A DNA stretch of 33,352 nt from Chthonomonadales bacterium (GTDB taxonomy: Bacteria; Armatimonadota; Chthonomonadetes; Chthonomonadales; CAJBBX01), in assembly GCA_037442185.1 (NCBI GenBank), contig JBBIQU010000002.1:29538-62889 (forward strand). Reading direction: 5' to 3'. Under the pieces are notes generated by a model. That model worked only from the letters and a program-made list of their open reading frames with translations. It was not told where the DNA came from and searched no databases. Both the position numbers and the translations under genes were made by a program. Shown piece by piece: positions 4,371-30,191 of the stretch (the stretch's first letter is position 1; every line of letters starts with the position of its first letter).

Positions 4371-4392
4371 TCTCCGTACGCGCGATCTCTGA

Positions 4393-4426: not shown

Positions 4427-4471
4427 CCTGTTCGGAGCGCATCAAACCCGCGGAATGGTTGTCGGCGGTAG

Positions 4472-4480
4472 TGGTACAAT
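4472..4480 (+). promoter_or_regulatory. Extended -10 element upstream of ABC transporter
   Basis: TGGTACAAT (TGn-TACAAT), 31 nt before ATG 4512. Confidence 0.4.
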
Positions 4481-4511
4481 GGAGTGAAAGCTCAGTACCA
4501 GTAACCACGCC

Positions 4512-7329: not shown

Positions 7330-7492
7330 TGCCGTCGCATTGTCGGGCGGCCGGAACGCTGCAACACGGCGGCGTCCGCGTGCGTCCAACCTTTGGCGCA
7401 CCGACGCCGCACGCTTCGCGTCGGATGGCGCAAGGTACAATGACCGGACGAAAGTTCGCGTCTCCAATGCGGGCGACGCAGGAAGGGCAGCA

Positions 7493-8758
7493 ATGTCAGA
7501 CAAGCAAGGAATGGATCGTCGGGATTTCCTCATGGGAGCCGCTCTCACCGGCCTGACCATGGGGCTGGTTGTTGAGGAGCTCCGCGCGGAGCCGCAGGCA
7601 GCAGGCCAGGCTGCCGCGCCGGCCGCTCCGCCCGTCAGCTGCGCGGTTGTGGGCCTCGGGCTCAGAGGCCGCGAGATACTGACCGCATTGGCCAAACTGC
7701 CCGGCGCGCCCGTGGCCGCGATCTGCGACTCGTACACGTCCGAGGCCTATGTCAAGCGCGCGCAGACGATCGCCCCCAACGCCAAGTTCGAGGCCGACTA
7801 CAAGGCGGTCCTCGGGAACCCCGCCGTCAAGGCGGTGTTTGTTGCGACGCCGTCGCATCTGCACAAGCAGATCGTTCTCGATGCGATCCAGGCCGGCAAG
7901 CATGTCTACTGCGAAGCCCCATTGGCCAGCTCGATTGACGATGCCAGAGCCATAGCCCAAGCGGGCGCTGCCGCCAAGACGATCTTCCAGGCGGGCCTCC
8001 AGTATCGGGCGAACAAGATGCACAACCATGCCATCACGTTCCTTGGCGACATGGGCAAGCCGGTCGGCGCAAGGGCACAGTGGCACCGCAAGACCTCGTG
8101 GCGGGCGGCTGCCCCCACTCCAGATCGCGAGCGAGAGCTGAGCTGGCGGATGTACAAAGCCTCGTCGGCGGGTCTGCCCGGCGAAGTCGGCATCCACCAG
8201 TTCGACGTGATCTCGTGGTACCTGAAGGAGCAGCCCGTTGCGGTGACCGGCTTCGCCAACGCCGCCGCGAAAGACGGCATGGAGGTCCCCGACACGATCC
8301 AGTGCCTCCTCGACTACCCGTCGGGCATTCGGATGGTCTACGACGCGACGCTCTGCAACTCGTTCGACGGGTCCTATGAAATCATCCTTGGCCCGGCGTT
8401 CGCCATGATGATCCGCGACCAGCGCGGCTGGATGTACAAGGAGACCGACTCTCCGCTGCTCGGCTGGGAAGTGTACGCCCGCAAGGACAAGTACGGCGAC
8501 GAGAACGGCATCGCGCTCGTTGCCGATGCGACCAAGCTCATGAGTCAGGGCAAGGAGCCGGGCAAGGTCGGCACAGATGTCGGCAAGTCGGCGTTGTATC
8601 AGTCCGTCGAGGCGTTTCTGAACAGCGTGCGAACGGGCGCAAAGCCGGCTGCGACGGCAGAGATCGGCTTCCAGGCGAACGTGGTGGCGGTCCGCGCGCA
8701 TGAAGCGTGTCTCAGCGGAAGCCGCGTTGAGATCACCGCCGATTCGCTGAAGCTCTAG
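7493..8758 (+). CDS. Tat-exported Gfo/Idh/MocA family oxidoreductase
   Basis: DRRDFL twin-arginine signal; VGLGLRG NAD-binding motif; ATPSHLH; KHVYCEAP (Ala replaces the usual EKP Lys). GGAAGG RBS before ATG 7493. Confidence 0.9.
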   Translation: MSDKQGMDRRDFLMGAALTGLTMGLVVEELRAEPQAAGQAAAPAAPPVSCAVVGLGLRGREILTALAKLPGAPVAAICDSYTSEAYVKRAQTIAPNAKFEADYKAVLGNPAVKAVFVATPSHLHKQIVLDAIQAGKHVYCEAPLASSIDDARAIAQAGAAAKTIFQAGLQYRANKMHNHAITFLGDMGKPVGARAQWHRKTSWRAAAPTPDRERELSWRMYKASSAGLPGEVGIHQFDVISWYLKEQPVAVTGFANAAAKDGMEVPDTIQCLLDYPSGIRMVYDATLCNSFDGSYEIILGPAFAMMIRDQRGWMYKETDSPLLGWEVYARKDKYGDENGIALVADATKLMSQGKEPGKVGTDVGKSALYQSVEAFLNSVRTGAKPAATAEIGFQANVVAVRAHEACLSGSRVEITADSLKL

Positions 8759-10228: not shown

Positions 10229-11173
10229 ATGCCCTCTCCCCTGACCCGGGCAGCATGCGCCGCCATGGGCACGCGGTTCGAGGTGGCGCTTTGGGGAGGA
10301 CCGCCTGAACGCCTCGAGGCAGCGGCATCGGCAGCGCTCGAAGAGATCGTCCGCCTCCATCACCAGCTCAGCCTGTTCGACACGGCTTCCGATGTCTGGG
10401 ACCTGAACGCCCGTGCCGCCCATGAGCCGGTTCGCGTCGAGCCGCGCCTGTTCGCACTGATCGCACGTTGTCTCGAGCTGAACAGCCTCACACTCGGGGC
10501 CTTCGATATCACCGTGGGATCGCTGATGCAGGCATGGGGATTCCGCGATGGCGCAGGGCTATCCGACGGTTCGCGGATCACCGCGTCGCGCGTCGTCGCC
10601 CGCAATGACGTGGTTCGCGGCGGCGAGCGGCCCACCTCGCCGCACACTCATCGCCAGCGAGCATGCGGTGCGCAGAGCGGAGGCTCCCATCCCATCGCGT
10701 TGGACCCAGCCTCGTTCACCGTGCGCTATCTCGACCCGGCGGTTCAGGTGGACCTTGGCGCCATCGGAAAGGGTTACGCCCTGGACGAGGCAGCCTCGAT
10801 CCTGCGCGAGTGCGGCGTCGGCGGCGCGCTGATCCACGGTGGCACAAGCTCCATTGTCGCCGTCGGCTCCGATCCCGAGGGGCGCCCATGGAAGATCGGC
10901 GTGGCGCGACCGCCCGATCAGGGCGCAGAGATGCTCACTGTGGAGATCATGGACAGCGCGCTGGCCGTGTCTGCGAGGCATGGCGGCGTAGTTGGCGATG
11001 TCGGCCACGTCATGGACCCGCGCACAGGGCAACCCGCAATGGATACACGTACAGCGATCGTCCAGGGCCCGTCGGCCGCGGACGCCGATGCCCTTTCGAC
11101 GGCGCTTCTCGTGCTGGGAGACGAGTTTGTTGAGGCCCTTGCCGCGATGGGCTATAGGGGATGGTTGGCGTGA
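10229..11173 (+). CDS. apbE: FAD:protein FMN transferase (ApbE family), no signal peptide
   Basis: AMGT, GAFDITVG, DLGAIGKGYALD, HVMDPRTG and ADALSTAL motifs. Confidence 0.92.
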   Translation: MPSPLTRAACAAMGTRFEVALWGGPPERLEAAASAALEEIVRLHHQLSLFDTASDVWDLNARAAHEPVRVEPRLFALIARCLELNSLTLGAFDITVGSLMQAWGFRDGAGLSDGSRITASRVVARNDVVRGGERPTSPHTHRQRACGAQSGGSHPIALDPASFTVRYLDPAVQVDLGAIGKGYALDEAASILRECGVGGALIHGGTSSIVAVGSDPEGRPWKIGVARPPDQGAEMLTVEIMDSALAVSARHGGVVGDVGHVMDPRTGQPAMDTRTAIVQGPSAADADALSTALLVLGDEFVEALAAMGYRGWLA

Positions 11174-11245
11174 GCGACGTTGCCGCAGCAGCCGTGGCTG
11201 CTCCGCAAACCGGCCTCGCTACTCAGCGCGAAGTCGTTGGCGGCT

Positions 11246-11889
11246 CTATCGGCGTCTTCGCCGAACCAGTCCGCCCAGGATGCCGCTGGAGGCGAGCAAT
11301 AACGGCAGCTGTAGCCCGGCGGGCTCAGGAACGACACTGAAGTTCGGCCCGAAGTACCCCTTCTCCTCCGCCGGATACGTGTTTGACGGGTATCCGGTCG
11401 AGTTCACGTAAACGTTCTTCACATAGGTTACGGGCGAACTGGCGCTGACGGACGCGGCCTTGCCCACGATTCGGTCATGCTGGGAAGGATCCGGGTTTGG
11501 ACCCGCAATCGGATACACAGCGCTTATCCGGTACGTGCCCGGACCCAATGCGGTGGGCGAGACCGATACCCATCTCCACTCGGAGCCCGGGCTTCCTCCT
11601 GACGGGACCGTGCCCTCTACAAGCCGTGTCTTGACGGTTCCGGTGGACCATATCGTGACGAGATGACTGTGGACCAGCCCGTCCGATCCATAGTCCCACA
11701 ACCCAAGCCGATCCACAGTGACGGCCTGACTCAGCGTGAACTCCCAGCCGAGAGTGCGAACCTCGGCGCCTCCGGTTATGTAGGATGAGAAGCCGGTCAG
11801 CGCGATTTCGGCCCGGCACGGCACGGCAAGGCAAGGCCAACCATCAGACCGATGACCCCGATCATACCGACCGTTCGGCTGCCACGCAT
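11246..11889 (-). CDS. PEP-CTERM sorting domain surface protein (DUF4082-like domain); frameshifted in the signal-peptide region by a 5-bp repeat
   Basis: C-terminal VPEPAGLQLPLLLASSGILGGLVRRRRR. AAGAGGAG RBS then ATG 11889 gives MRGSRTVGMIGVIGLMVGLALPCRA, out of frame with the body EIALTGFSS...TLGWEFTLSQAVTVDRLGLWD. Confidence 0.85.
11809..11838 (-). repeat. Pentamer tandem repeat GGCCT-TGCCT-(TGCCG)x3-GGCCG
   Basis: Read directly; the + strand has CGGCA at 11814, 11819 and 11824. Confidence 0.9.
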
Positions 11890-11991
11890 GCTACAACTCC
11901 TCTTGGCGGAAACATTCCGCGACTACGGTTGAGTATACCGCCGCGGGGCGTCTCCGGAAAGGCGCGTTCGGAGGCGTCTTTGGCTACCGCC

Positions 11992-14037
11992 TCAAGGGAA
12001 CTTGAGTACAATCCCGTCCTGAGGCGCAAGGGTGACCTCACGCACGAGCGCACCGTCGTTGAAGCGAGCCGCGCTCTCGGCGAGGATGGCGTCGGCGACC
12101 GTGACTCCCATTCCGGCGCTGGTAACCGTCACCCGGCAGCGTTCGCCCTGACCGAGCGGGACGGTGAACAGCCTCACCCATCCGCCGTCGCCCTTCCGCT
12201 GATCCACGACCGCTGTGGCAAGCTTGCGCCCACCGGAACCGGTCACCTGATACGCGGCTCCGGCGGTAAGGGTCTCCCCACCAGGTAGGCACGCGTAGAT
12301 CGTGTAGCGGTCGGCGCTTGGAGCCGTGAAGGTCCAGTGGGCCCTGCTGCCCGGCTTCAGCGCCATGCGGTGCGTCGTGCCCACATAGCGCCCCTCTTCG
12401 GACTTGCGCTCCCACGCTCCCTGCGCGGTGAAGCCCGGCGCAGAGTCATCTACCTCAATGGCATGGAGCGGGGCTGCGGCGTCCTTCAGCCTGCGCATCG
12501 GCGGGTTCAGCGGTATGCGCACCGCATGCGACAGCGGGTTGAACAGAGCGACGCCGCGCTCGAAGTCACGGCGCAAGTAGGTCGCGCCAAGGTACGTCAC
12601 CCGCAAGCGGGTCAGGGCGAAGTTGGCGGCTCCGTGCAGGTGCCACTCGATGGAGTAATCGGCGAAGTCGTCGGGGATGATGACCGTATTGATGCGCCAG
12701 ACTCCGCCGTCGCCGACGCTGCAGAAGTCGCGCCCCTTGTCATGATGCTCCCATCCTCCGGTCGCCGTGCGCGCATTGAACTGCAGCGTGCCGGTGGGCT
12801 TGCTCAGCACCCGGCAATCGGCCTCGATCCGGTAGGCTTTGCCCGGCGTGAGCTTCAGCAGTTCCGGGTTGGTTCCGATGACGCGCGCCCAGCCCGCCGA
12901 CCGATCATTGCGCCGCACATGAATGCCGTCAGGTTCGACTGAGGCGGTATCGGGATCGAGCACGATCGGTCCGATCGGCTTGCCGGACGTCCAATCAAGC
13001 AAGACCGGCGGAGCGACTGGCGACGCCTCTCGCCCAGGATGGAGCGCCTTGCCAAGCTTCGCGTCGTACTCGGCATACCACCACGGCAGCCCGTACCACG
13101 TGGTGCCGAAGTCGTTGGCAAAGTAGCAGTCGGTCATCAGCGTCATGGTGAGGCCCGCACGCATGCGCCGGAAGTCGCGCCGCACCCGTTCCTGCTCGCC
13201 CCTGGTGGTGACGCGCTCCCCCTTGCCGACGCGCCACGCCTGCCAGCCCAGCGGATGCGTCATGATGGCGAAGGTCAATGTCGGCTTGAGCGATGCGTGT
13301 TGCCACTCGGTCAGAATGCGCACTGCGTCCATGCCGTTGAGCGTCCCCATGGTGACCCGCTCGAGCAGCGGCTGACCCTCGAATAGGCGGCCATGCAGAT
13401 GCCCGGCATGTCCCATGTCCACGTCATTGGCGAGGATGAGCGCATTCGGCCATCGCTGGCGCAGGCGGTCGAAGAAAAGACACTGGCGCGCGTGCCAGAT
13501 GGGGTCAATCTTGGCCGGATCGTCGGCCTTGCCGCCGCGGTCGGTATCCACGTCACCGAGCCAGGTCGCGCGTCCGACCACGCTGTCGAAGAACAGGCCG
13601 TCTGCAGTGCCTTCCTTGAGCAGTTCGTCGAACTCCGTCGCAGCCTGTTGAACGAGCGCATCGAGGCAGTCATCCCGCGTGATGTTGGGCAGCGTGATCA
13701 TGTCGGCCCACCATTTGACCATCGTGCCGTCGGGCCTGCGCAGGAACCACTCGTCCTTCATCCACGGCATCGTCTTCGGATCCCCAAGGTTCATGAACTG
13801 CCCGGTTCCCAGCAGCACGATGCGTGGGTTGCGCTTCCGCACCTCGGTCCCGAAGCGGCGCCACGCCTCGGGCGACGCCCCGCCCATCACGAGCAAGTCG
13901 TACTTCGCCCAGCGGTCATACTCCTTTGAGTTCGCCGACACTCCCCACAGGTTGGCGATGCGGGGGAAGGTGGGCGCCGATGCGGTCGGCGCCCCACGGA
14001 CGGCGACGGCGAGCGCGATCAAGGCCATGGCGTTCAT
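11992..14037 (-). CDS. Secreted putative glycoside hydrolase (GHL15-like) with carbohydrate-binding-like insert and golvesin/xanthan-lyase-C-terminal-like domain
   Basis: Signal peptide MNAMALIALAVAV; DGLFFDSV; WWYAEYDAKLGKA...RRDFERGVALFNP; EVDDSAPGF...WTFTAP...VDQRKGDGGWVRL...ADAI. The ORF extension to 14391 overlaps cocE and is rejected. Confidence 0.65.
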   Translation of the reverse strand: MNAMALIALAVAVRGAPTASAPTFPRIANLWGVSANSKEYDRWAKYDLLVMGGASPEAWRRFGTEVRKRNPRIVLLGTGQFMNLGDPKTMPWMKDEWFLRRPDGTMVKWWADMITLPNITRDDCLDALVQQAATEFDELLKEGTADGLFFDSVVGRATWLGDVDTDRGGKADDPAKIDPIWHARQCLFFDRLRQRWPNALILANDVDMGHAGHLHGRLFEGQPLLERVTMGTLNGMDAVRILTEWQHASLKPTLTFAIMTHPLGWQAWRVGKGERVTTRGEQERVRRDFRRMRAGLTMTLMTDCYFANDFGTTWYGLPWWYAEYDAKLGKALHPGREASPVAPPVLLDWTSGKPIGPIVLDPDTASVEPDGIHVRRNDRSAGWARVIGTNPELLKLTPGKAYRIEADCRVLSKPTGTLQFNARTATGGWEHHDKGRDFCSVGDGGVWRINTVIIPDDFADYSIEWHLHGAANFALTRLRVTYLGATYLRRDFERGVALFNPLSHAVRIPLNPPMRRLKDAAAPLHAIEVDDSAPGFTAQGAWERKSEEGRYVGTTHRMALKPGSRAHWTFTAPSADRYTIYACLPGGETLTAGAAYQVTGSGGRKLATAVVDQRKGDGGWVRLFTVPLGQGERCRVTVTSAGMGVTVADAILAESAARFNDGALVREVTLAPQDGIVLKFP

Positions 14038-15838: not shown

Positions 15839-17278
15839 ATGGTTCTACTCACGGGTGCGACGGGCTATATCGGTGGGCGACTGATGCCCATATTGGCGCG
15901 GGAGGGCTACCGCGTCCGCTGTCTCGCGCGCCGACCCGATGCCCTGCGCGGTCGCGCGCCCGAGGGCGTCGAGGCGGTGCGCGGCGACGTTCTCGATCCC
16001 GACTCGCTTCGAGCGGCCATGGAAGGCGTCAGAATCGCCTATTTCCTTGTCCACGCTCTCGGTTCGTCGGGCCAGTTTGAGGCCCAGGAGCTTACCGGCG
16101 CCGCCAACTTCGCCCGAGCCGGCGCCGAAGCCGGCGTCGAAAGGATCGTGTACCTTGGCGGCCTCGGCGACGGCGGCGAGGAGCTTTCGCCCCATCTGCG
16201 CAGTCGGCACGCCGTCGGCCACATTCTACGCGAGAGCGGCGTCCCTGTGGTCGAGTTTCGCGCATCCATCATCATCGGCTCAGGGAGCCTGTCTTTCGAG
16301 CTGGTGCGCGCCCTGGTCGAGCGGCTGCCGATCATGGTGACGCCCACGTGGGTGTCCGCCCCGGCGCAGCCGATCGGCATCGGCGACACGCTGGAGTACC
16401 TGCTGCAGGGCGCGCGCGTGCCGATCGAGGGTTCAGTCATCTATGAGATCGGCGGTCCCGATCGAGTATCGTACGGAGACCTCATTCGCGAGTACATGCG
16501 CGTCCGCGGCCTTCGTCGGCTGATCATCCCTGTGCCGGCGCTGACGCCACGGCTGTCCAGCCTGTGGCTCGGCCTCGTGACGCCCCTCCACGCTCGGATC
16601 GGGCGCAAGCTCATCGAGAGCGTGCGCCACGCGACGGTGGTGAATGACGACAGGGCGCTGCGCGACTTCGCCATTCGACCCGTGGGCTTCCGAGACGCCA
16701 TGGCGCTCGCGTTGCGCAACGAGGACGCGGAGTTCGCCCAGACCCGATGGACCGATGCGGTGTCGTCTGCCGGCATTCCGGCCCAGTGGGGCGGCGTCAG
16801 ATTCGGCAACAGGCTAGTGGATACCCGGGCCGTTTCGATGGACGCCTCGCCAGCCGCGGCGTTTCGTGCGGTTGAGGCGATTGGCGGTCCCAACGGATGG
16901 GGATACGCCGACTGGCCGTGGACTCTCCGAGGATGGCTGGACCTCCTCATCGGAGGCGTGGGGATGCGGCGTGGTCGCCGCGACCCAAGCCGGCTCTCGG
17001 TCGGCGATGTAGTGGACTGCTGGCGAGTCGAAGCCATCGAGGCTGGACGGTGCCTGCGCCTGTGGGCCGAGATGAAGCTCCCAGGTCGCGCGTGGCTGCA
17101 GTTCGACGTGACATCGGCTCAGGACGGCTGTGAGCTCCGCCAGACAGCCATCTTCGATCCGGTGGGCTTCTGGGGCCTGGCTTACTGGTACGGCATATGG
17201 CCGCTCCATCAGGTAGTCTTTCGCGGGATGTTGCGAGGCATTGCGCGTCGAGCGATGGAGGACGACGGATCACGATGA
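15839..17278 (+). CDS. SDR/NAD(P)-binding oxidoreductase with C-terminal DUF2867 (YbjT-like)
   Basis: TGATGYIGG; LSPHLRSR; GGVGMRRGRR; AEMKLPGRAWL; QTAIFDPVGFWGLAYWY. Confidence 0.9.
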   Translation: MVLLTGATGYIGGRLMPILAREGYRVRCLARRPDALRGRAPEGVEAVRGDVLDPDSLRAAMEGVRIAYFLVHALGSSGQFEAQELTGAANFARAGAEAGVERIVYLGGLGDGGEELSPHLRSRHAVGHILRESGVPVVEFRASIIIGSGSLSFELVRALVERLPIMVTPTWVSAPAQPIGIGDTLEYLLQGARVPIEGSVIYEIGGPDRVSYGDLIREYMRVRGLRRLIIPVPALTPRLSSLWLGLVTPLHARIGRKLIESVRHATVVNDDRALRDFAIRPVGFRDAMALALRNEDAEFAQTRWTDAVSSAGIPAQWGGVRFGNRLVDTRAVSMDASPAAAFRAVEAIGGPNGWGYADWPWTLRGWLDLLIGGVGMRRGRRDPSRLSVGDVVDCWRVEAIEAGRCLRLWAEMKLPGRAWLQFDVTSAQDGCELRQTAIFDPVGFWGLAYWYGIWPLHQVVFRGMLRGIARRAMEDDGSR

Positions 17279-19131
17279 TCGCGGTAGTTCACGCCATGCT
17301 CGCGCTGATTGCGGCCCAGTTTCCTCCCGTCACAGGGCCGACCTGCGCGGTTTCCATGCCCGGCGTCGTAAGAAGCGACGGATACACGCTGCGCGTTCCG
17401 TCGCCCGCCGGCGTCGAACGGTCCTCGGGTACTGCGCGGCCGGTTGCCACGTCCGGCGTCGCAAGAAGCGACGGCTACACGCTGCGCGTTCCGTCGTCCG
17501 GCGTCGCAAGAAGTGACGGCTACACGCTGCGCGTTCCATCGTCCGCCGGAGTCGAACGGTCCTCGGGTACTCCGCGGCCGGTTGCCGTGTCCGGCGTCGC
17601 AAGAAGCGACGGCTACACGCTGCGCGTTCCGTCGTCCGCCGGAGCTGAAGGGACGGCCGAAGCGCGGGCCACCTCGGGTTCCTCCCGAGCGAAGATGCAG
17701 GCGGCTGCCTCGGTGCCGCCGATGACGCTCAGGGACAGGTTCGGCCGGGATCTGGCTCAACGGGGCGCGACGCTGGTGGATTGGCAGGGGCATATCGCCA
17801 ACCCGGCCATCGCGCTCACGATCGAGCTGAACGACAGGGTCAACCTCCCCGCCCGGGTGACGCTCAGGGCCAACAGTCCGCGACTGATGTTCAACCTCTT
17901 CTCCGAAGTCGGCCCCGAAGGCCCGTCGAAGACCCTTTTCGTCAACGGCCCGGGCCGCTCGGCGCAGTTCCTGATGTCGGTGTTCCCCGATCGTGACTCG
18001 AGGGACGAGGAGTACCGCCTGACCGCGGAGCTTACCACGGGGATGGGCGAAATCCGGACCGTGTCGTGGACCGTGCGGGTCCTGGACCAGGATCGCGACC
18101 TGCCTGCGGCATATCCGATTCACTTCGACTACGCGCATGACGCACATGGGTTCTTCGCTGACCCGACGGCGCGCCGAATCATTGAGACCGCTGCCAATGA
18201 CTGGGCGTACTTCCTCGACGATCAGGGCTTCGACCCGGTGCCGGCAGGGAGCGAGATTGCCTGGATCCACGAGCCGGACACGTTCGAGCGCGGACACGCG
18301 GTCACCAACCCCGCTTCCTACTCGGGTTTCCTCCTGTTCGTGCAGAGCATTCGGGGACCCGAGAGACGATCCGGAGGGCGATGCTCCGATCAGGGCGGCC
18401 TGCACACTCGCGGAGGGCGCGGCGCCAACCTGCGCAGGTCGGGCACCGTCATTGCTGAAGTGACGGGCAACTGGAACGGGCTCGGATGGTCGTATGAGGA
18501 AGACGACGACCGATGGTGGGCATCGTCATGCCATGCCCGCGAGAAGCACGATTTCTACTCGGTGATCCGGCACGAGATCGGTCATGCCCTTCTCTACCAT
18601 CGCCCGAATCCGGGCTTCGGCTCCCTCATCAAGAACGGCCGAGTGACCAACCGTGAGCTCGCCCGCTACCTTGGCGCTATACCGGCGATCAACGCATCCG
18701 AGCATCTGTTTGCGACTGTGGACCCTGTCAGCCGAGTGGGCGCCTTCGGCAACGAGTATGGGGGCGATATGCCCCGCAAGCGGTGGCTGATCACGAAGGC
18801 GGACCTGTTGATCGCACGAGCCGCGGGCTATCGGCTCCGGGAGACGACGCCATTGATGCCGTTACGCGCGCCCAGGCGGTACGTCGCCGAAGCGCACGTC
18901 GGTCGGCCTATGGCGGAGCGCCCTCTGGTCTCAGGAGGCATACCGGCCTACGATGCGCGAGTGGTGCGCGGAACGCTGCCCGATGGCGTAGAGTTGGATC
19001 CGTTCACCGGCGAGCTTCGGGGCGCTCCCACCCGCCCGGGACGCTTTCGGGCCGGCATCGAGTTTCGCGACAACGACCCCGCATCCCCAAGAGTCGTCTG
19101 CGACCTGACCATCTCCGCCAAAGAGCAATAG
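17275..19131 (+). CDS. Secreted zincin-like metalloprotein with C-terminal putative Ig (He_PIG) domain and in-frame N-terminal DNA repeat array
   Basis: ATGA overlap with the upstream stop; hydrophobic N-terminus; HEIGH motif; GTLPDGVELDPFTGELRGAPTRPG. Confidence 0.75.
   Translation: MIAVVHAMLALIAAQFPPVTGPTCAVSMPGVVRSDGYTLRVPSPAGVERSSGTARPVATSGVARSDGYTLRVPSSGVARSDGYTLRVPSSAGVERSSGTPRPVAVSGVARSDGYTLRVPSSAGAEGTAEARATSGSSRAKMQAAASVPPMTLRDRFGRDLAQRGATLVDWQGHIANPAIALTIELNDRVNLPARVTLRANSPRLMFNLFSEVGPEGPSKTLFVNGPGRSAQFLMSVFPDRDSRDEEYRLTAELTTGMGEIRTVSWTVRVLDQDRDLPAAYPIHFDYAHDAHGFFADPTARRIIETAANDWAYFLDDQGFDPVPAGSEIAWIHEPDTFERGHAVTNPASYSGFLLFVQSIRGPERRSGGRCSDQGGLHTRGGRGANLRRSGTVIAEVTGNWNGLGWSYEEDDDRWWASSCHAREKHDFYSVIRHEIGHALLYHRPNPGFGSLIKNGRVTNRELARYLGAIPAINASEHLFATVDPVSRVGAFGNEYGGDMPRKRWLITKADLLIARAAGYRLRETTPLMPLRAPRRYVAEAHVGRPMAERPLVSGGIPAYDARVVRGTLPDGVELDPFTGELRGAPTRPGRFRAGIEFRDNDPASPRVVCDLTISAKEQ
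17360..17644. repeat. Tandem 2 x 138 bp (A-B-A)(A-B-A) array; A = 45 bp containing a GTAG-footed REP-like hairpin, B = 48 bp
   Basis: A starts at 17360, 17453, 17498 and 17591; B at 17405 and 17543. On the minus strand A reads GTAGCCGTCGC-TTCTT-GCGACG. Confidence 0.9.
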
Positions 19132-19140
19132 GCGGCCTTC

Positions 19141-19185
19141 CCCATTCGTACCATCAGTCCCATCCATCCCATCCGTCCCATCACT
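19141..19185. repeat. 9-bp-period array CCCATCNNT (5 units)
   Basis: cccattcgt accatcagt cccatccat cccatccgt cccatcact. Confidence 0.85.
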
Positions 19186-19216
19186 CTCTGATTGTTAGCA
19201 CTATCAAAGTTTTATC

Positions 19217-19245
19217 TTGACTTCGTAAGTCATGTGGAGTATCCT
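19217..19245 (+). promoter_or_regulatory. sigma70 promoter of dtxR-feo operon with overlapping inverted repeat (candidate operator)
   Basis: TTGACT (19217-22)-17 nt-TATCCT (19240-45); palindrome TGACTT-CGT-AAGTCA at 19218-19232. Confidence 0.7.
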
Positions 19246-19253
19246 CATTCATC

Positions 19254-19727
19254 ATGAGCGAACCAACCCAGACCGATAACGGCAGCGCTCCCCTTACAGC
19301 GACGATGGAGGATTACCTCGAGGGAATCTTCCGGCTGTCCAAGGACCGGCGCGTGGTCCGCATGCGCGACATTGCCGGCATGCTCGGCGTCACCCCTTCG
19401 ACGGCAACCACCACCGTCCAGAGCCTGGCCCGGCGAGGTCTGCTCAGCCACGAGAAGTACGAGGACGTGGTGCTCACCAAGGCCGGGCAAGAGATCGCCG
19501 AGGATGTCTTGCGCAGGCATATGGAGATCCGCTCGTTCCTCGAAGACGTTCTGCTGCTGGATCCGGATACGGCGGAAGATGACGCGTGCCGCATGGAGCA
19601 CGGCATCAGCGAGCTCACGCTCAACCGACTTCGGTGGTTCGCGGCTGCGCTGCGAGGGTGCGGCAACAGCCGGATGGGCTGCATGCGCGCATTCAGAGAC
19701 CAGGTGAACGGCAGTTCGGAGTCGTGA
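19254..19727 (+). CDS. DtxR/MntR family metal-dependent transcriptional repressor
   Basis: MEDYLEGIF, HTH DIAGMLGVTPSTAT, AEDDACRMEHGIS. Confidence 0.93.
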   Translation: MSEPTQTDNGSAPLTATMEDYLEGIFRLSKDRRVVRMRDIAGMLGVTPSTATTTVQSLARRGLLSHEKYEDVVLTKAGQEIAEDVLRRHMEIRSFLEDVLLLDPDTAEDDACRMEHGISELTLNRLRWFAAALRGCGNSRMGCMRAFRDQVNGSSES

Positions 19728-19758
19728 GTTCGGATCGGTGAGCGACAAGGGCGAAGCG

Positions 19759-20001
19759 ATGGGTGATGCGAGGGTGCCCTTGTCCGAGGCCCCGACCGGG
19801 CGAACTCTGCGGGTCGAGGCGGTTCAAGGGGGGCACGGCTTGGTCATGCGCCTCGCCGGACTGGGCCTGACTGTCGGGAGCGACGTTCGCAGTCTCATCA
19901 ACAATGGCCGCGGGCCTGTTCTGATCGTGGTCAGGCACACGCGACTGGCGCTGGGGCGCGGGCTGGCGTCCAGGATCATGGTATCGCAACCAGAGGACTG
20001 A
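19759..20001 (+). CDS. feoA: Ferrous iron transport protein A
   Basis: [35 protein letters not shown]; alternative GTG start at 19738. Confidence 0.92.
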
Positions 20002-20002
20002 T

Positions 20003-22123
20003 GTGACGAGGACCGTTGCGCCGGAATCGAACAGGATCGCGGGTCCTGCCGTGCCGACGTCGGCATCGGATCCTGCCCTGCAGACGCGAGCCCTTACGGT
20101 CGCACTTGCGGGCAACCCGAACTCGGGCAAGACCTCCATCTTCAATGCCCTTACCGGCGCCAATCAGCGCGTGGGCAACTGGCCTGGAGTGACCGTCGAG
20201 CGCAAAGAGGGCTTTCGAGCGGCGACCGAGGGGGGCGCGCATCGCACCCCGTCCCGCGCCAGGATTGTGGACCTTCCCGGCACCTACAGCCTCACCGCTG
20301 CATCGCCCGACGAGCGCATCGCGCGAGACTTCATCTTGCACGGCGACAGTGACCTTGTCATCGCCGTCGTGGATGCGGCCAATCTCGAGCGCAACCTCTA
20401 TCTGGTCCTCCAGCTCATTGAGATCGGCAAGCCGCTCGTCATCGCCCTCAATATGGTTGACATAGCCGAGGCGCTCGGCATCAGCATAGAAGTCGAAAAG
20501 CTCTCGCAGCTGCTCGGCGTGCCCGTTGCGCCCACTTGCGCCAACGTCGGCAAGGGCATAGCCGAGCTGTGGGATGCGGCCATGCAGGCTGCGCGGGATC
20601 CCTGGGAACCGAGACGACTGTCGTACGGTCGTCAGGTTGATGAGGCCATCGAACATGTTCGCGAGCGCGTCGCGGCCGAGCCCGAACTGGTACGCACTCA
20701 CCCTGCGACGTGGATGGCCGTGAGCCTGCTGTGCGGCGACGCCAGCCACATGCCCGACTCGCGTGAGGCCGATCCGCGCATGCAGGGCGTTCTCTCCGCA
20801 GCGCGGTCTGCCGCACGACATCTTCAGGACGTCACCGGCGACACGGCCGAGGCAGCGGTCATCCATGGCCGCTACGGAGCCATTGCGGGACTGATGCGCG
20901 AGGTCGCCACTCTCCCTGAGGACACGCGCGAGACCCCATCGGACCGCGCCGATCGTGTGTTGCTGCACAGGATCTGGGGCATGCCGATCCTGCTCGCGGC
21001 AGTTGCGCTGACCTTCCACCTGACATTCACGCTCGGCGACATCCCGAGCCGGTGGATCGAGATGGGCGCCGCCGCGCTCGGCGACTACGTTGCGACGCTC
21101 ATGCCTGCCGGCATGGTCCGGTCGCTGATCGTGGACGGCATCATCGGCGGAGTCGGCGGCGTCCTAGTGTTTCTGCCTCAGATCCTGATTCTGTTCGCGG
21201 TCATCGCGATTCTTGAGGACAGCGGCTACATGGCGCGCGCGGCCTTCCTGATGGATCGTACGATGCATCGGATGCGCCTGCACGGCAAGGCGTTCATCCC
21301 GATGGTGATGGGTTTCGGATGCAACGTTCCGGCCATCATGGCCACTCGCACCCTCGAGTCCCATCGTGATCGGCTTGTCACGATCATGGTGGCTCCGCTC
21401 ATGACCTGCAGCGCACGGCTGCCGGTCTATGCGCTGATCGCGGGAGCGCTGTTCGGGGTCTACGCCGGCCTTGCGATTGCGTCCATGTATGCGCTGGGCG
21501 TTCTGCTGGCCGCGATCATCGCCCGCGTCTTCCGCAGGCACGTCCTGAGCGGCGAGGAAGATCCGTTCGTCATGGAACTTCCACCCTACCATCGCCCGAC
21601 CTTCAGGGGGGTCATGATCCACACCTGGGAACGCGGAAGCCTCTTCCTGCAGAAGGCCGGAACGGTGATTCTTGCAGGTGCGGCGCTCATGTGGTTTCTG
21701 AGCGCGTTTCCGTGGGGAGTTGAGGTTGGCGGTCCCGAATCCTATGCGGGGCGGCTGGGGCGCATGACGGTGCCGGTTCTGAGACCGCTGGGGTTCGGTC
21801 CCAATGAAGGCGTCGCGCTGATCTCGGGCTTCGTGGCCAAGGAGATCGTCGTCTCGACACTGGGCGTGATCTACGGTCTTGGAGCCGAGGCCGACACTGC
21901 CGCGCTGGGCAAGGCCATTGCAGCCGGACCCATGACGCCCCTGTCGGGCTACGCGTTCATGGCATTCGTTCTGATCTACTCGCCGTGTCTGGCGACCATC
22001 GCGGCGATCAAGCGGGAGACCGGCTCCTGGAAGTGGGCGTTGGGAGCCATGGGATACCTGACGGCCCTTGCTTGGTTCGTCGCTTTCGTCATCTATCAGG
22101 GAGGACGATTGCTGGGGCTATAG
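20003..22123 (+). CDS. feoB: Ferrous iron transport protein B
   Basis: [63 protein letters not shown]. Confidence 0.97.
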
Positions 22124-22335
22124 GCACGCGCAAATCCAAAGCGCAAGCAGGCTGGAAAGCAAGTCGGGAAGCATCCGATGGACGCGTTCCCGGCCACCAG
22201 AGGCGATGCGCGGGTGGTGGAGCACCCGCGCATCTCAAGAGACGGACGGATGCCCGATCCCTTGCCGAAGGGCATCTTACCGTCTATCACGCCGCCCGTC
22301 AAGCATAACGGGCACAGGGCAGGAGGAGGTAAGCC

Positions 22336-23100
22336 ATGCCTTCACGTAAGGGTTTCACGCTCATCGAGCTGCTGACGGTGATCGCCGTCATCGCCGTCCT
22401 CGCAGCCATTCTGTTTCCCGTCTTCGCCGAAGCACGGGCGAAGGCAAGACAGACGGACTGCCTTTCAAACACGCGCCAGATAGGGTTGGCGATCGCCATG
22501 TACGTTCAGGACTACGAGCGCTATCCGATGCATTCGTCGAGCGCCTCGACTTCGCCCCGCACCCGCTGGCCCGACTACATCATGCCGTACACGCGCAACG
22601 AAGCGGTCTTCACATGCCGATCGGCATCGCTCGATGTCTTCTGCAAGCAATGGGCACATGCGCCGGCGCGGCTCTATGGAGGGTACGGGTACAACTACCA
22701 GTATCTCGGCAACTCACGGCTGGCGTGGACGGCAGCGGAAGCCGAGATAGCCGCGCCGGCAGACACTATCGTCGTCGCCGATACGAATGGTGTGCGGCGT
22801 GACGACGGATCGGTGGGAGGCGGCGAATACACCGTTGATCCTCCGTTGCCGAGCCTGCGCGGCAGCGGCAACGCGACGGGATACTACGGTTCAGGCTCGT
22901 CTTGCGGCTCGGGCGCCGATGGTCCCGGTCGCCATGGCTGTCGCTCGACGCCTGCCCGGCGCCATGCGGGGCTTACGGTTGTCGCGTATGCCGATGGGCA
23001 TGCCGCGTCGAGAAGCCTGTCGGCGCTCGACGACAGCAACGGCGACGGCGTGACCGACAACGGTTCCTGGAACGGGCTCGGAGATCCGAGCCGCCGATGA
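22336..23100 (+). CDS. Prepilin-type N-terminal cleavage/methylation, DUF1559 / H-X9-DG domain protein
   Basis: KG|FTLIELLTVIAVIAVLAAILFPVF; CLSNTRQIGLA; H-AGLTVVAYA-DG; strong AGGAGGAGGT RBS. Confidence 0.92.
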   Translation: MPSRKGFTLIELLTVIAVIAVLAAILFPVFAEARAKARQTDCLSNTRQIGLAIAMYVQDYERYPMHSSSASTSPRTRWPDYIMPYTRNEAVFTCRSASLDVFCKQWAHAPARLYGGYGYNYQYLGNSRLAWTAAEAEIAAPADTIVVADTNGVRRDDGSVGGGEYTVDPPLPSLRGSGNATGYYGSGSSCGSGADGPGRHGCRSTPARRHAGLTVVAYADGHAASRSLSALDDSNGDGVTDNGSWNGLGDPSRR

Positions 23101-23182
23101 CAGGTTGTGGCTTGTCCGATGGGCTGTCGTGGAATGGCGGAGCGGACAGACGCGTACTGATTAGGCGGTAACGACCGGCACC

Positions 23183-23395
23183 ATGACCATCGAGATCATC
23201 ATCGTCGGCGCGGCAGTGGCGCTCGCAGTGATAGTGCTTGGCCGCCACGTCCTCCGAGAGTCCCAGGGGCGTGGCGGCTCATGCGCCGACTGCTGCGAGC
23301 GCTGTACCCACCGCTCGCAGTGCTCTCTGATCACGATCAAGACCGGGGTCAACAAACGTGAGGCAACGGCGGATCAAGCCCCGGGAGATCGCTGA
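23183..23395 (+). CDS. FeoB-associated Cys-rich membrane protein
   Basis: N-terminal TM helix followed by GGSCADCCERC...C; downstream of feoB on the same strand. Confidence 0.75.
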   Translation: MTIEIIIVGAAVALAVIVLGRHVLRESQGRGGSCADCCERCTHRSQCSLITIKTGVNKREATADQAPGDR

Positions 23396-23450
23396 AGCCG
23401 CCTCACGCCTCGCCGCCAATGGCGCAGACACTTACGTAGCGCGGACAACA

Positions 23451-23514
23451 TCGTAGCGCAGGCGTCCTGCCTGCGTCTCGCGATTCCTTTGCAGCCGGGA
23501 CGGCTGCGCTACGA
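23451..23514. repeat. GTAG-type REP-like inverted doublet between convergent genes
   Basis: TCGTAGCGCAGGCGTCCTGCCTGC ... GCAGCCGGGACGGCTGCGCTACGA; the terminal 17 nt are inverted with 1 mismatch, and each half is itself a hairpin. Confidence 0.75.
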
Positions 23515-23563
23515 AGGGACGAGACGGCTGCGATGCGATTTGCCGACGGCGTGCGCGGAGCTG

Positions 23564-25831
23564 CTACCGCTTTCTCACGGCCACGATGCGTTCCACCGAT
23601 ATGGCGTTGCGTTGGTCCGGCTTGCCGTGCGGAAACGCGGGTCCCTCGAACTTGATGCGGGCGTGGACCTCGTGAAGGTCGCCGCCACCGTCGCTCAGGT
23701 CGCACTGAATGATCCAGCTCCAGAAGAACCACACGTAGTCCGCAGTGCCAACCTTGCACGCCGGCAGCCGATACCAGTGGTAGCCTGGACCCGGTATGGC
23801 CTCGGGCGCAATCCGGGCGCTGACAACTCCGCGCAGGCCGACTGTGTCGTACGTCCCCCACGGTATGGGCAGAGCGTATTTGGCCAGTTCCGCATCGGGG
23901 ATCTCGAAGCGCGAAGCGGTGCCGGTCTCGGCCTCGGCGTCCTGAACGACCCTGGCCTGGTCGGCGAAGTTGCGAAACGTCTCAGCGGCGTGGTCCTGGA
24001 CGGAACCTGCGGGAAGCCCGCGGAAGGGCTCGGGGAGGGGAAGATTCAGGCGCACTGCGGCCAGCGTCTCGATTTCGCGGCGCGCTGCGGCCCGTTCGGA
24101 TTCGCGCTTTGCCGGTGCAACGCGCCGGTCAATCTCAGTCAGCCATGTCTCCAGCGCTCGTCGGGCTACGGCGTCGCGATCCCACGGACACGATGCGGAC
24201 CCGAGTTGCGCGTTCAGTCGCCTTGCCAGCGCCAGCGTGGCGCGATCCAGCGACAGGCGCGCAACCCGGACGCGGTGGAGCATGTCGGGCTTGCCGGCAA
24301 CGGCGCGCTCCGCTCGGTCGAACAGCTCGTGCGCCCGGGCAACAAAGGAAGGCGTCAGATGGATGAAGCTGATCGGCCCGCTCCCCATGCCGATGAAGCT
24401 GCCCGCCTTCTCCTGCGCGGCCTGAAGTTCGGACAGGTATATCCGAATGACGGCGCCGGCTGCCCCGTAGTAGCCGTCCGTGAACTCCCGCAATGCGGCG
24501 GCGTAGTCGAGGTTGGGGTCCTCGAGGAACCGGGCCATCAGCCACAGCTTCAGATCGCGCATGTCGCCCGACATGCTGTACTCGTGTTCCGTGAAGACCC
24601 CTTCGACGTTGTGGTCGCGGTAGAACCGGAAGTCGAGCGGGTACGTCTGGGCGCTCGCAAAGGGCAGAACCGAGTGCGGGCAATAGGTCACGGCGTAATC
24701 CCAGATGCGCAGGCGCTTCGCTATGTTCGCCCAGGAGGTGATGTGATCCCGGAACGCCTTGTTGGCCGGATCGGTGATGGGGCGCGCGAAGTTGCTTCCG
24801 GTGTCGCAGAGCCGAATGATCACGTTGTCGCGCGGACGAACCGAGCGCGGCGGCTTCTGGGTCATGAAGTAGGCGAGCGTGTCTATGGCTACATCGGGAT
24901 AGTCGTTGCGGATGCCGTCAGCAAGGTAGTTGGCGAGGTCAATGTATGGCCCGGCATATCCGCCCTCGCGTTCAGCCGCTGCCTTACACTGCGCGCATTC
25001 GCAGAATCCTCCCCAGTCGTTCTGCGAGACGCTGTAGACCATAGAAGCCGGCGAGCCGGTCTTGGCAGCCTCGGCACGTGACTGTGCGATATAGGCACGC
25101 AGGCGCTCAAGCATGAGCCGCCGCACATCGGCATTGGTCGTGCATAGCTGCGCATTCTCGCCGGTTCGCTTGCCCCCGACCTCGGCAAAGTACTCGGGGT
25201 GAGACGCGAAGAACTCGCCGGGCGGCACGTAGTTGTAGAACGTATGGACGTGGTAGGGCGGTCCGTAGTCCATTGCGCCGCCGAGTTCGGCGCCAATCGG
25301 TCGGTCCCCGTTGCGGTTCAAGCGGTTGCGAGCGCACCATCGGTCGGCGCCCGGGTCCTCGACCATGTAGACATCGCGGTAGCGGAATGCGGGCTCGCCG
25401 CGCAGATTGAGACCTGTGAGCCTGGGGTTCCTGATGCGCGGCACCGTCTCGTCGCACGGCGTCCACCACCGCACTCCAAGCCGCTCCAGCAGATGCCATG
25501 CGGCGTAGAGCGTGCCGCGCGGCCGACCGCCCGTCACGACCAGGCCTCGCGGCGTGCTGCGAACAACCCACTCTTCGGCGCGCAGCGAGCCCGCGCGCAG
25601 ACCGGCGGCACTGGCCTGCGCCGTTGGTCCGACCCAGATCGCGTCGCGCCTCGATGATGCGCGGGTTTCCGGGATGACGGGCCACGCGCGGCCTGTCATC
25701 TTGCCCGGATAGGTTGACAGCTCCCGCGCGGCGGTAGTTTCGGCGGCCGTCGCACCTTCGGCCAGCGCGATCACACTCGGAGCCGCGTTGTGCGACATCG
25801 CCATCAAGACAAGTGCGGGCATCAGCATCAT
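23564..25831 (-). CDS. Secreted DUF4838 domain protein (GH-like, alpha-glucuronidase-N-type domain at N-terminus)
   Basis: GGRPRGTLYAAWHLLERLGVRWW, HPEYFAE, QLCTTN, SQNDWGGFCECAQC, TLAY, IWDY; signal peptide. Confidence 0.88.
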   Translation of the reverse strand: MMLMPALVLMAMSHNAAPSVIALAEGATAAETTAARELSTYPGKMTGRAWPVIPETRASSRRDAIWVGPTAQASAAGLRAGSLRAEEWVVRSTPRGLVVTGGRPRGTLYAAWHLLERLGVRWWTPCDETVPRIRNPRLTGLNLRGEPAFRYRDVYMVEDPGADRWCARNRLNRNGDRPIGAELGGAMDYGPPYHVHTFYNYVPPGEFFASHPEYFAEVGGKRTGENAQLCTTNADVRRLMLERLRAYIAQSRAEAAKTGSPASMVYSVSQNDWGGFCECAQCKAAAEREGGYAGPYIDLANYLADGIRNDYPDVAIDTLAYFMTQKPPRSVRPRDNVIIRLCDTGSNFARPITDPANKAFRDHITSWANIAKRLRIWDYAVTYCPHSVLPFASAQTYPLDFRFYRDHNVEGVFTEHEYSMSGDMRDLKLWLMARFLEDPNLDYAAALREFTDGYYGAAGAVIRIYLSELQAAQEKAGSFIGMGSGPISFIHLTPSFVARAHELFDRAERAVAGKPDMLHRVRVARLSLDRATLALARRLNAQLGSASCPWDRDAVARRALETWLTEIDRRVAPAKRESERAAARREIETLAAVRLNLPLPEPFRGLPAGSVQDHAAETFRNFADQARVVQDAEAETGTASRFEIPDAELAKYALPIPWGTYDTVGLRGVVSARIAPEAIPGPGYHWYRLPACKVGTADYVWFFWSWIIQCDLSDGGGDLHEVHARIKFEGPAFPHGKPDQRNAISVERIVAVRKR

Positions 25832-25959: not shown

Positions 25960-26034
25960 TGGAGCGGGAGACGGGTTTCGAACCCGCGACCTCCTCCTTG
26001 GCAAGGAGGCGCTCTACCACTGAGCTACTCCCGC
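25960..26034 (-). tRNA. tRNA-Gly(GCC)
   Basis: GCGGGAGTAGCTCAGTGGTAGAGCGCCTCCTTGCCAAGGAGGAGGTCGCGGGTTCGAAACCCGTCTCCCGCTCCA; CCA encoded. Confidence 0.97.
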
Positions 26035-26057: not shown

Positions 26058-26138
26058 TGGGCGAGAGGAGATTCGAACTCCTACACCTTTCGGCACTGGT
26101 TCCTAAGACCAGCGTGTCTGCCATTCCACCACTCGCCC
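26058..26138 (-). tRNA. tRNA-Leu(TAG)
   Basis: GGGCGAGTGGTGGAATGGCAGACACGCTGGTCTTAGGAACCAGTGCCGAAAGGTGTAGGAGTTCGAATCTCCTCTCGCCCA; long variable arm, CCA not encoded. Confidence 0.96.
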
Positions 26139-29108: not shown

Positions 29109-30191
29109 TCACTGTCTGATGCAGACCTCGCCCAGCCGCCGCATGTGATACACATAGTTGGGCAATGAAATGTCCGGCGGACACGAGTGGTCGGCCATCG
29201 GGATGTATCCGCCCTCTTCGATCAACGGTCGGACCCTGGCCAGTTCGGCTTCGATGGCGTTCGGCCCCTCGGCCATGGCGCGCTTGTCAATGCCTCCCCA
29301 CATGCGCAGGTCGCGCCCGTACTGCCGGCGGACCTGGTTCACGTCCATGCCTGCCTGCACTTCGAAGGGATAGAGGAAGTTCAGGCCGGCATCGAGCCAG
29401 ACCGGTATGAGCGTATCTATGCGTCCGTCGCTGTCGAGCCCGATCCACCGGACGCCTCGGCCGCGCAGAAACTCGGCCACTCTCTTGTATCTCGGCAGCA
29501 TGTATCGCCTGGCCAGCTTCGGCGTCAGCAACGGGCCGGTCTTGTATGCCATGTCTTCCCAGAACGCGAAGGCGTCAATGGGACCCGCGTCGAGTATCTG
29601 GTCCATCATTGCGATGATGAAGTCGGCATTGGCGTCCATCATTTCCTCGATGAACGCCGGATCATCGTAGAAGAGCGTACAGAGCGACTCCACTCCGACG
29701 AGGTTGCGCAGCGGCCCGAAAAAGCCGCCCCACCGGTCAGAGATGATCACGATCGGTATCTCGGATGCCCGCAATGCGGCGAGCCGCTCGCGCCAGTCAG
29801 GGCCGATGCGCTCCTCGGGTCTGGGCTGCATCCGCTCCTTCCAGAACGCGCGGAACTCCTCGCGCGTAGTCACCGGGAACTTCACGAACTGTGGCATTGA
29901 GCTGAACGGGTTGTTCTTCATCTCGCGCATCAGGATGCCTTCGTGGTTGACATACAGGATATGCTCGGCATCCTCCTCGATCACGCGATGTTCGAACGGC
30001 GGGTTGGGGAAGAACCAGTGACCGATCCAGTGAACCTGGCTTGCGCCCTGACGCACGTCGTCTTTGCTCGGGTCGTAGCCCTCACTCTGCCAGCGCTCAA
30101 TGGTGTCGGGCCAGCCGCCCCAGGTCCAATGCGGCGTGACATCCACAGGCCGGTAGTCCATGCATGCGTGAAAGCGTTCGCGCTCGGTCAT
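29109..30191 (-). CDS. Uroporphyrinogen decarboxylase family (MtaA/CmuA-like) protein
   Basis: MTERERF start, EDMAYKTGPLLTP, DSDG, PFEVQAGMD, WGGIDKR, GGYIPMADH. Confidence 0.85.
   Translation of the reverse strand: MTERERFHACMDYRPVDVTPHWTWGGWPDTIERWQSEGYDPSKDDVRQGASQVHWIGHWFFPNPPFEHRVIEEDAEHILYVNHEGILMREMKNNPFSSMPQFVKFPVTTREEFRAFWKERMQPRPEERIGPDWRERLAALRASEIPIVIISDRWGGFFGPLRNLVGVESLCTLFYDDPAFIEEMMDANADFIIAMMDQILDAGPIDAFAFWEDMAYKTGPLLTPKLARRYMLPRYKRVAEFLRGRGVRWIGLDSDGRIDTLIPVWLDAGLNFLYPFEVQAGMDVNQVRRQYGRDLRMWGGIDKRAMAEGPNAIEAELARVRPLIEEGGYIPMADHSCPPDISLPNYVYHMRRLGEVCIRQ

Follow-up and report, generated by a model that had tools for sequence, protein, structure and literature searches.

The stretch of DNA analysed here (the window; 33,352 nucleotides from a Chthonomonadales bacterium, GCA_037442185.1, contig JBBIQU010000002.1, positions 29,538-62,889 of the forward strand) carries a gene for a pilin-like protein of the DUF1559 family within an operon for ferrous iron uptake (feo). 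Five open reading frames (ORFs), all on the plus strand, occupy positions 19254-23395 in the order DtxR-family regulator, feoA, feoB, prepilin/DUF1559 gene and small cysteine-rich gene, as a first-pass annotation of this DNA had described them. The evidence leads us, on balance, to view the pilin-like protein as an envelope protein that is regulated by iron starvation and assists ferrous iron acquisition outside the cytoplasm, and the ortholog family to which it belongs probably helps cells to cope with iron shortage. The ortholog group is repeatedly wired to Fur/DtxR-type regulators and to operators of iron regulons; for the window gene itself, it is the position within the operon that suggests iron regulation.

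The genome from which the window derives (G000, 4.56 Mb; other G numbers denote the genomes of relatives and L numbers the loci or contigs fetched) contains 64 pilin-like matches, one DtxR-family gene, two Fur genes and one feoB. The window gene falls in a sharply separated ortholog group, and the only paralog of its genome that lies inside the feo operon is a member of this group. Orthologs at 58-63% identity were present in 8 of 40 relatives, and a large protein collection returned 119 relatives among the matches listed, all of them full-length and 54-70% identical, which the named sources mostly label as Armatimonadota DUF1559 or prepilin proteins. A set of 79 ortholog loci from other genomes was obtained from a species-representative genome collection searched with an alignment query; a contig search with the head domain alone recovered no relatives. 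Nearly all related loci belong to metagenome-assembled genomes, and two of them, L074 and L114, are labelled as a Methanoregulaceae archaeon and an Actinomycetes bacterium despite their Armatimonadota-type orthologs, probably through binning error.

Linkage to feo is not a fixed module in this group, and coupling to iron regulators recurs well above chance. A DtxR-family gene lies within 300 bp of the ortholog in three of the 79 loci. The order is dtxR-pilin-feoA-feoB in L096; in L146, dtxR and the pilin gene are followed by a 242-aa gene of the Phenol_MetA_deg-like outer-membrane barrel family and then by feoA, feoB and a FeoB_associated gene; and in L091 a full-length DtxR gene is divergent from the pilin gene, after which comes a protein with a heavy-metal-binding domain (HMBD). 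In a fourth locus, L145, the ortholog is preceded at 189 bp by a Fur gene. By rough arithmetic, regulator adjacency would be expected in about 0.1 of the 79 loci, compared with the four observed, or three if L096 and L146 represent one event. When neighbours were clustered, the DtxR family was the most recurrent across contexts, apart from pilin paralogs and clade-specific synteny blocks, and five of six DtxR/FeoB matches (found with the window queries only) lay at most 1.3 kb from the pilin gene, compared with 64% of the flank DNA lying more than 3 kb away. In L089, feoAB is found 4.8 kb from the ortholog. Metal-related classes beyond DtxR, Fur and Feo, which were defined after the neighbours had been seen, are represented by a PepSY_TM gene within two genes of the ortholog in L102, L106 and L120 and by a divergent VIT1 gene beside it in L119.

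An independent scan of 80 loci on metagenome contigs yielded apparent duplicates of L096, L145 and L123 together with new cases, namely a fur-pilin arrangement in L201 and, in L214, a DtxR-family gene followed by a pilin-like gene of 40% identity. A further contig, L164, carries the pilin gene, a second DUF1559 gene and a partial PepSY_TM gene, and no metal gene was matched in the remaining 71 of the 80 loci. Among family relatives, G011 shows the order operator-fur-operator-methyltransferase-pilin. In G015, two DUF1559 paralogs that are not orthologous come after dtxR-feoA-feoA-feoB on the same strand (L260, corresponding to G015:C3, positions 2702-7766, minus strand); one of them is 34% identical over the full length, the other 51% identical over the N-terminal 106 residues. 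In a quick tree of 83 sequences, L096 and L146 grouped with the PepSY-linked L102 and L120 (support 91), and the window gene, L091 and L145 were placed elsewhere; since the deep branches were unresolved, how many independent origins there were was judged from the gene arrangements, as a lower bound. The clustering of orthologs with feoAB/dtxR that the first-pass annotation had put forward as a test is not seen for the eight orthologs of the 40 relatives or for most of the 79 loci. DtxR-family or Fur-family genes nevertheless adjoin the ortholog in L096/L146, L091, L145, L201 and L214, and in G011 a Fur gene stands two genes upstream between two copies of the operator. The wider idea of a metal-repressed gene working with Feo is thus supported as a recurrent pattern of adjacency and shared palindromes, though not as a universal one.

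Some orthologs have other conserved neighbours. Genes of the Phenol_MetA_deg barrel family lie directly 3' of orthologs in the DtxR-linked clade (L146:10764-11492; L091:10767-11804 and 11932-12618; L123:1829-2059; L121:10930-11079), and the upstream one of the two copies in L091, at 10767-11804, also bears an HMBD; the barrel-like protein of L146 found no match as a query in the window's genome. In L124, L128 and L130-L133, a conserved 379-aa protein without a Pfam match is always the next gene after the pilin ortholog. At least L128 and L130 have, upstream, a giant gene of the alpha-2-macroglobulin type, whose homolog in the remaining loci is cut by the contig end.

The upstream regions of 145 orthologs contained long palindromes of several classes, four of which were tested in the genomes where they occur. 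In nine loci of several clades, the class 1 palindrome, TCTTGAC-N6-GTCAAGA, precedes the ortholog by 40-89 bp. In five Fimbriimonadales-type genomes, scanned with at most one mismatch, it gave 1-5 sites per genome compared with 0-2 for a reversed-pattern control, and the pilin site was present in all five. The other good matches each precede, by 13-33 bp, sufB (two genomes), an ABM-family monooxygenase gene (two genomes; in one case followed by an extracytoplasmic function (ECF) sigma/anti-sigma pair), a heme oxygenase gene (one genome) or the feoB 5' end (one genome). The remaining one-mismatch sites are within or close to unrelated genes, a phage capsid gene among them. Judged by sequence, the genes that share class 1 read as the content of an iron-starvation regulon.

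Class 3, TGCGAC-N3-GTCGCA, was confined to a few places in the 2.2 Mb of loci examined. In G020, duplicate loci included, it precedes fur, and in G011 it stands on either side of that gene; L201 has two copies ahead of the pilin gene, G017 shows the order operator-fur-operator-feoB, and in G022 and G023 it precedes feoB. Within the window's own family, a Fur-type regulator with the class 3 operator is therefore paired with feoB in three genomes, and the same regulator and operator are paired with the pilin gene in two genomes and one metagenome contig, with one gene between them in G011.

A fourth class, TTTTTAG-N6-CTAAAAA, was rejected as an iron operator, as it was found only at the pilin gene and a tandem paralog. 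A GC-rich class, ATCGGCGAC-N7-GTCGCCGAT, gave 33-71 sites per genome with two mismatches and was swamped by matches in GC-rich coding DNA, and its only clear extra site was upstream of another pilin paralog. The window's genome contains no perfect class 1 core, only 69 one-mismatch sites that are mostly GC-rich and apparently coding, and a single class 3 site, inside a gene. More generally, long perfect palindromes of distinct classes, with arms of up to 10 bp, occur 25-130 bp upstream of orthologs in different clades (L070-L072, L147 and L148; L204-L224; L098, L099, L183 and L213). Both Fur genes of G000 (C132, about 1150-1220, and C245, about 1900-1990) have AT-rich palindromes just upstream, which are candidate autoregulatory operators unlike those of relatives.

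The pilin gene of the window is a lineage-specific insertion, carried on about 1 kb of extra DNA that parts feoB from the small gene. In the two genomes of the same genus, whose feoB genes are 87% and 80% identical to that of the window, regulator-feoA-feoB is followed directly by the small cysteine-rich gene, and DNA similarity breaks off at the stop codon of feoB and is found again from the small gene onward. Neither genome has a pilin ortholog, their best matches being members of a sister subfamily (46-50% identical). The inserted segment includes the feoB-pilin spacer, which is strongly structured as RNA (minimum free energy -100.5 kcal/mol, z -4.91, with none of 200 shuffles equally stable) and contains a perfect 12-bp hairpin (22205-22216 with 22223-22234) that no T-run follows. 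Comparison with Rfam gave no family at the gathering score (best symR, 21.4 bits versus 61). The spacer sequence is present in a single copy in the genome, and neither the spacer nor the DNA after the pilin gene showed similarity to any locus compared.

A consensus scan of positions 18900-23700 found one promoter-like site on the plus strand, located 5' of the regulator in a region conserved in both same-genus genomes, and no canonical terminator was found in the same interval. A perfect 6-3-6 palindrome at 19218-19232 overlaps this promoter-like site, occurs once in the window and resembles operator class 1 with a 7-bp spacer; it was rejected as an operator, being matched in 31 of 100 shuffles and poorly kept in the same-genus genomes. 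Read-through past the pilin gene is suggested because it most easily explains the intact and conserved small gene downstream. Co-transcription of the pilin gene with feoAB would likewise be expected, since the genes share a strand, the spacer has no promoter-like site and the small gene needs a transcript.

On this reading, the 1-kb segment bearing the pilin gene entered the feo operon between feoB and the small gene, where read-through from the promoter 5' of the DtxR-family regulator would most likely transcribe it. Because of the presumed co-transcription with feoAB, the gene would be derepressed when the regulator loses its metal, and the pilin would be made with FeoAB when iron (or manganese) is scarce. 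The product could be a subunit of a pilus or pseudopilus, or a periplasmic protein anchored in the membrane, and its candidate steps could include the binding of an ion or chelate, contact with or adhesion to iron minerals, and hand-over to FeoB. It could also take part in a reductive step with PepSY_TM-type proteins or link an outer-membrane channel to FeoB, a possibility raised by the L146 operon. The same operon, in which regulator, pilin, barrel-like protein, FeoA, FeoB and FeoB-associated protein stand together, is the reason for a stronger version, in which the group would be a dedicated 'iron-starvation pilin' under Fur/DtxR control that forms a periplasm-spanning or surface part of the ferrous iron route; we regard this version as possible but doubtful.

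Several observations weigh against a role in iron acquisition and lend themselves to another explanation, that one of some 64 mobile, fast-evolving paralogs settled neutrally in the feo operon by chance and has no tie to iron. The insertion is absent from both same-genus genomes, which lack an ortholog altogether, so that the feo operon works without the pilin gene. Pilin-like genes are very numerous, and the neighbourhoods of most orthologs are unrelated: in tblastn searches of the 40 relatives with the window regulator, FeoA, FeoB and small protein as queries, none of the eight ortholog flanks was matched (flanks of about 7 kb, the ortholog loci of G014 and G008 being on short contigs or at a contig end), nor were the flanks of seven sister-subfamily loci. 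In about 69 of the 79 genome loci, no gene recognisable as metal-related lies within two genes of the ortholog, and their Pfam neighbours are heterogeneous, including RNase PH/RtcB, FHIPEP, M14 and M50 peptidases, secretin, alpha-2-macroglobulin and others. In the window, the strong spacer hairpin might attenuate or terminate feoB transcripts and could insulate the pilin gene. Neither operator class lies at other iron genes of the window's genome, where an Rrf2-type regulator precedes sufB, and a further palindrome, TTTAGAC-N3-GTCTAAA of the alpha-2-macroglobulin clade, was rejected as an iron operator, since it also precedes subtilase and metallophosphoesterase genes. The related genomes are moreover not independent, L096 and L146 probably representing one event, and the genes of the loci were called with a crude ORF picker that made at least one error (G011).

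Chance placement nevertheless seems unlikely to us. It is this ortholog group, and not the paralogs generally, that adjoins DtxR, Fur or Feo in at least four arrangements in other lineages, and operators are common to the ortholog and to iron genes. Among 21 control loci of other paralogs, none had a match of this kind, although this control is underpowered because it covers 132 kb only, compared with 1.13 Mb. The window gene, in addition, retains every residue that is invariant in the family.

The iron-linked accessory that we favour is a type IV pilin-like envelope protein, in which a class III signal peptide leads into a long N-terminal helix, with a head of about 200 residues. The N-methylation motif was recognised by PF07963 (32.9 bits, cut-off 21.2) and TIGR02532 (32.6 bits, cut-off 16.3), and DUF1559 (PF07596, SBP_bac_10) matched with 35.4 bits against a cut-off of 23.3, over profile positions 2-63 of 268 only. 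The claimed G|FTLIE cleavage site is read as G6|F7-T-L-I-E11, and the several cysteines (five in number) and the acidic loop at D233-D241 were likewise found in the sequence. The claimed H-X9-DG motif was not: the residues are H222-X9-D232-D233, and TIGR04294, a model of 22 positions, gave no match to the window protein even at E<=10. The orthologs of L096 (22.0 bits) and L146 (19.3 bits) reach its cut-off of 19, which places the ortholog group at the edge of the H-X9-DG family. In an alignment of nine ortholog heads, three cysteines, the GGYGYN-QYLGN strand, a DPP box, a DGH box and most of the loop DD-x-[ND]-x-[DN]G-x-x-DNG-x-WNG are invariant.

AlphaFold2, run with an alignment of 120 sequences, gave a model with a predicted local distance difference test score (pLDDT) of 95.4 and a predicted template modelling score (pTM) of 0.88, in which a helix at residues 9-60 is followed by strands. 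Foldseek against the PDB gave no match at E<=1e-3. In an exhaustive comparison by VIA-align, about 20 of the top 22 chains were type IV pilins or pseudopilins, with Z scores of only 5.1-2.5 (Thermus PilA4, 5.1; EpsG, 4.7; PulG, 4.1). The modelled protein is accordingly described here as pilin-like; among solved structures, its large head has no close relative.

The signal peptide and the apparent fold are those of pilins and pseudopilins competent for assembly, and would also suit a protein that is regulated by iron without serving uptake, that is, an alternative pilus or pseudopilus subunit for adhesion, biofilm formation, motility or secretion of the type II kind. Another pilin-like gene lies within three genes of the ortholog in 20 of the 79 loci, a secretin gene lies downstream in L105, and a Legionella pilA2 mutant is described, in the accessible part of the report, as altered in biofilm formation (PMC13170364). 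Such a role is, in our judgement, quite improbable. Three arrangements (the window, L096 and L146) place the gene within a feo operon, and the links to PepSY_TM, VIT1 and outer-membrane barrel-like genes, together with the HMBD gene of L091, point to metal traffic over surface behaviour. In the window itself, no genes of pilus or type II secretion system (T2SS) machinery were seen, the rest of the genome not having been searched.

The acidic loop had been proposed to capture iron or manganese on a displayed pilus and to feed FeoB. Its residues D233-S-N235-G-D237-G238, with D241 as a further acidic ligand, fit the linear motif D-x-[DN]-x-D-G, which available portions of the literature describe as a calcium-binding motif of diverse families (PMC3123361), and the major pseudopilins of type II secretion are similarly described as having a conserved, stabilising structural calcium site (PMC13081927). 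The motif is kept in eight of nine aligned orthologs whatever their neighbours, L031 having Asn in place of the fifth-position Asp, and in the head alignment loop positions D179, G184 and D187 are invariant, and nearly so among the 120 sequences. The loop is probably a structural calcium site, as in pseudopilins. Thus, while direct capture could draw on the feo operon position and on the conservation of the acidic loop and of His and Asp residues in the head, the exact calcium motif, its retention near metal genes or not, the calcium site of pseudopilins and the lack of any sign found of a displayed pilus make such capture very unlikely.

The features of the locus are collected in Table 1. The regulator matched PF01325 (59.6 bits, 3.4e-16) and PF02742 (59.2 bits, 4.2e-16), fell below the NCBIfam equivalog cut-offs (MntR, 86.8 versus 153; DtxR, 48.5 versus 290) and is the sole Fe_dep_repr_C gene in the window's genome. 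FeoB, matched once in that genome, scored 640.5 bits against TIGR00437 (3e-192, cut-off 315.65), and all FeoB Pfam domains are present. The intergenic gaps are 10 bp (regulator-feoA), 1 bp (feoA-feoB), 212 bp (feoB-pilin) and 82 bp (pilin-small gene). At relatives' feoB loci a DtxR-family gene precedes feoB in 22 of 29 cases; of the description of the operon as DtxR-controlled, the adjoining DtxR-family gene was confirmed, and it is from this adjacency only that control would follow. The small gene, which had been called FeoB-associated, scored 25.1 bits against PF12669, below the 27-bit cut-off. That identity is probable from synteny and sequence: tblastn placed its orthologs directly 3' of feoB in G001 and G002, its reading frame and cysteine cluster are kept in the same-genus DNA alignment, and the PF12669 homolog that follows feoB in L146 scores 35.9 bits. 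As had been stated, the TonB-dependent receptor families found no match among the 26 genes called in the window.

Table 1. Features of the feo operon and its pilin-like gene (positions in the window)
Feature	Position	Strand	Basis
Promoter-like site TTGACT-17-TATCCT, 5' of regulator	19217..19245	+	consensus scan
DtxR/MntR-family metal-dependent regulator, 157 aa, short form without SH3/FeoA-like C-domain	19254..19727	+	Pfam
feoA	19738..20001	+	PF04023, 60 bits, 2.5e-16
feoB, ferrous iron transporter	20003..22123	+	TIGR00437
feoB-pilin spacer, strongly structured as RNA, part of inserted segment	22124..22335	+	folding
Prepilin-type DUF1559-family pilin-like protein, 254 aa	22336..23100	+	PF07963, TIGR02532, PF07596
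Dx[DN]xDG-type loop D233-S-N-G-D-G-V-T-D241, after H222-X9-D232	23032..23058	+	sequence
Small Cys-rich membrane protein, 70 aa, FeoB-associated type	23183..23395	+	PF12669 below cut-off, and synteny

Several neighbours of the operon deserve mention. Directly 5' of the regulator, positions 17197-19131 (plus strand) encode a 644-aa protein without an NCBIfam match, which has several tandem repeats of about 15 residues (GVARSDGYTLRVPSS-like) near its N-terminus, an HExxH motif with a weak Matrixin match (E 0.0038) and a weak match to the He_PIG Ig domain. On the other side, a DUF4838 gene (23564-25831, minus strand) lies beside the feo cluster; tblastn found homologs just 3' of feoB in G022, G023 and G017 (L061, L062 and L063), which indicates that the feoB-DUF4838 neighbourhood is conserved in the family. 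Two tRNA genes follow on the minus strand at 25963-26034 and 26058-26138 (Rfam, 73.1 and 58.1 bits). The window also contains, 6 kb downstream, a URO-D-like gene (29109-30191, minus strand), and another (L145:8666-9772) directly follows the Fur-linked pilin ortholog, a recurrence that may be coincidence.

If the stronger version, a dedicated 'iron-starvation pilin', is true, it would provide the first function for any DUF1559/H-X9-DG member, and Feo systems would gain a new accessory component. Few paralog families of Planctomycetota and Armatimonadota are as large as the DUF1559-type pilin-like proteins, with 60-70 copies per genome, and on the favoured reading one ortholog group among them has a testable role, namely a response to iron through Fur/DtxR-type repressors and an effect on ferrous iron acquisition; the predicted operators are amenable to gel shift. 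The favoured reading would extend the 2026 Legionella finding on a pilin and iron to a whole phylum, and suggests that diderm Feo systems may use unrecognised envelope accessories. In the literature found, supplements aside, neither an iron-regulated DUF1559 pilin nor a pilin-like Feo accessory was reported.

Compared with known systems, the operon resembles canonical Feo (feoA-feoB-feoC, or feoAB with small PF12669 proteins), its feoA, feoB and small cysteine-rich gene being typical; among the Feo accessories described, we are aware of none that is pilin-like. DUF1559-type proteins are, in the available portions of two papers, highly paralogous proteins of unknown function, with 68 in Planctopirus and 74 in Rhodopirellula (PMC10632474, PMC2754498). 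With the DUF1559/'H-X9-DG' proteins of Planctomycetota, Verrucomicrobiota and Armatimonadota, the window protein shares the N-methylation motif, the DUF1559 start, a C-terminal D-G-H box and massive paralogy, and it differs from the other members in the recurrent coupling of its ortholog group to iron regulators and in having no TIGR04294 match. The major pseudopilins GspG/EpsG/PulG appear to share its helix-plus-sheet fold (with the EpsG and PulG scores given above) and a calcium-type loop near the C-terminus, and their model TIGR01710 matches the N-terminal 62 residues of the window pilin, below the cut-off. In contrast to these T2SS proteins, however, the head is about twice as large, the Z scores are low, the sequence match is confined to the N-terminal helix and no T2SS genes are nearby.

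Among pilins tied to iron, the major pilus in the case of Synechocystis PilA1 has reportedly been proposed to act on iron oxides, and we know of no genomic coupling of PilA1 to feo or to Fur/DtxR. PilA1 is a type IV pilin that the available part of its report implicates in iron acquisition (PMC4144903). In Legionella pneumophila, PilA2, a major type IV pilin, promotes growth at low iron and the acquisition or assimilation of iron, in a role that is independent of piliation and adds to that of FeoB, according to the accessible part of the report (PMC13170364), which assigns it neither to a feo operon nor to the vicinity of an iron regulator. PilA2 is a classical small major pilin; in contrast to it, the window protein has a large DUF1559-type head and a role that is predicted. 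What the two would have in common is that of a pilin tied to iron acquisition or assimilation alongside FeoB.

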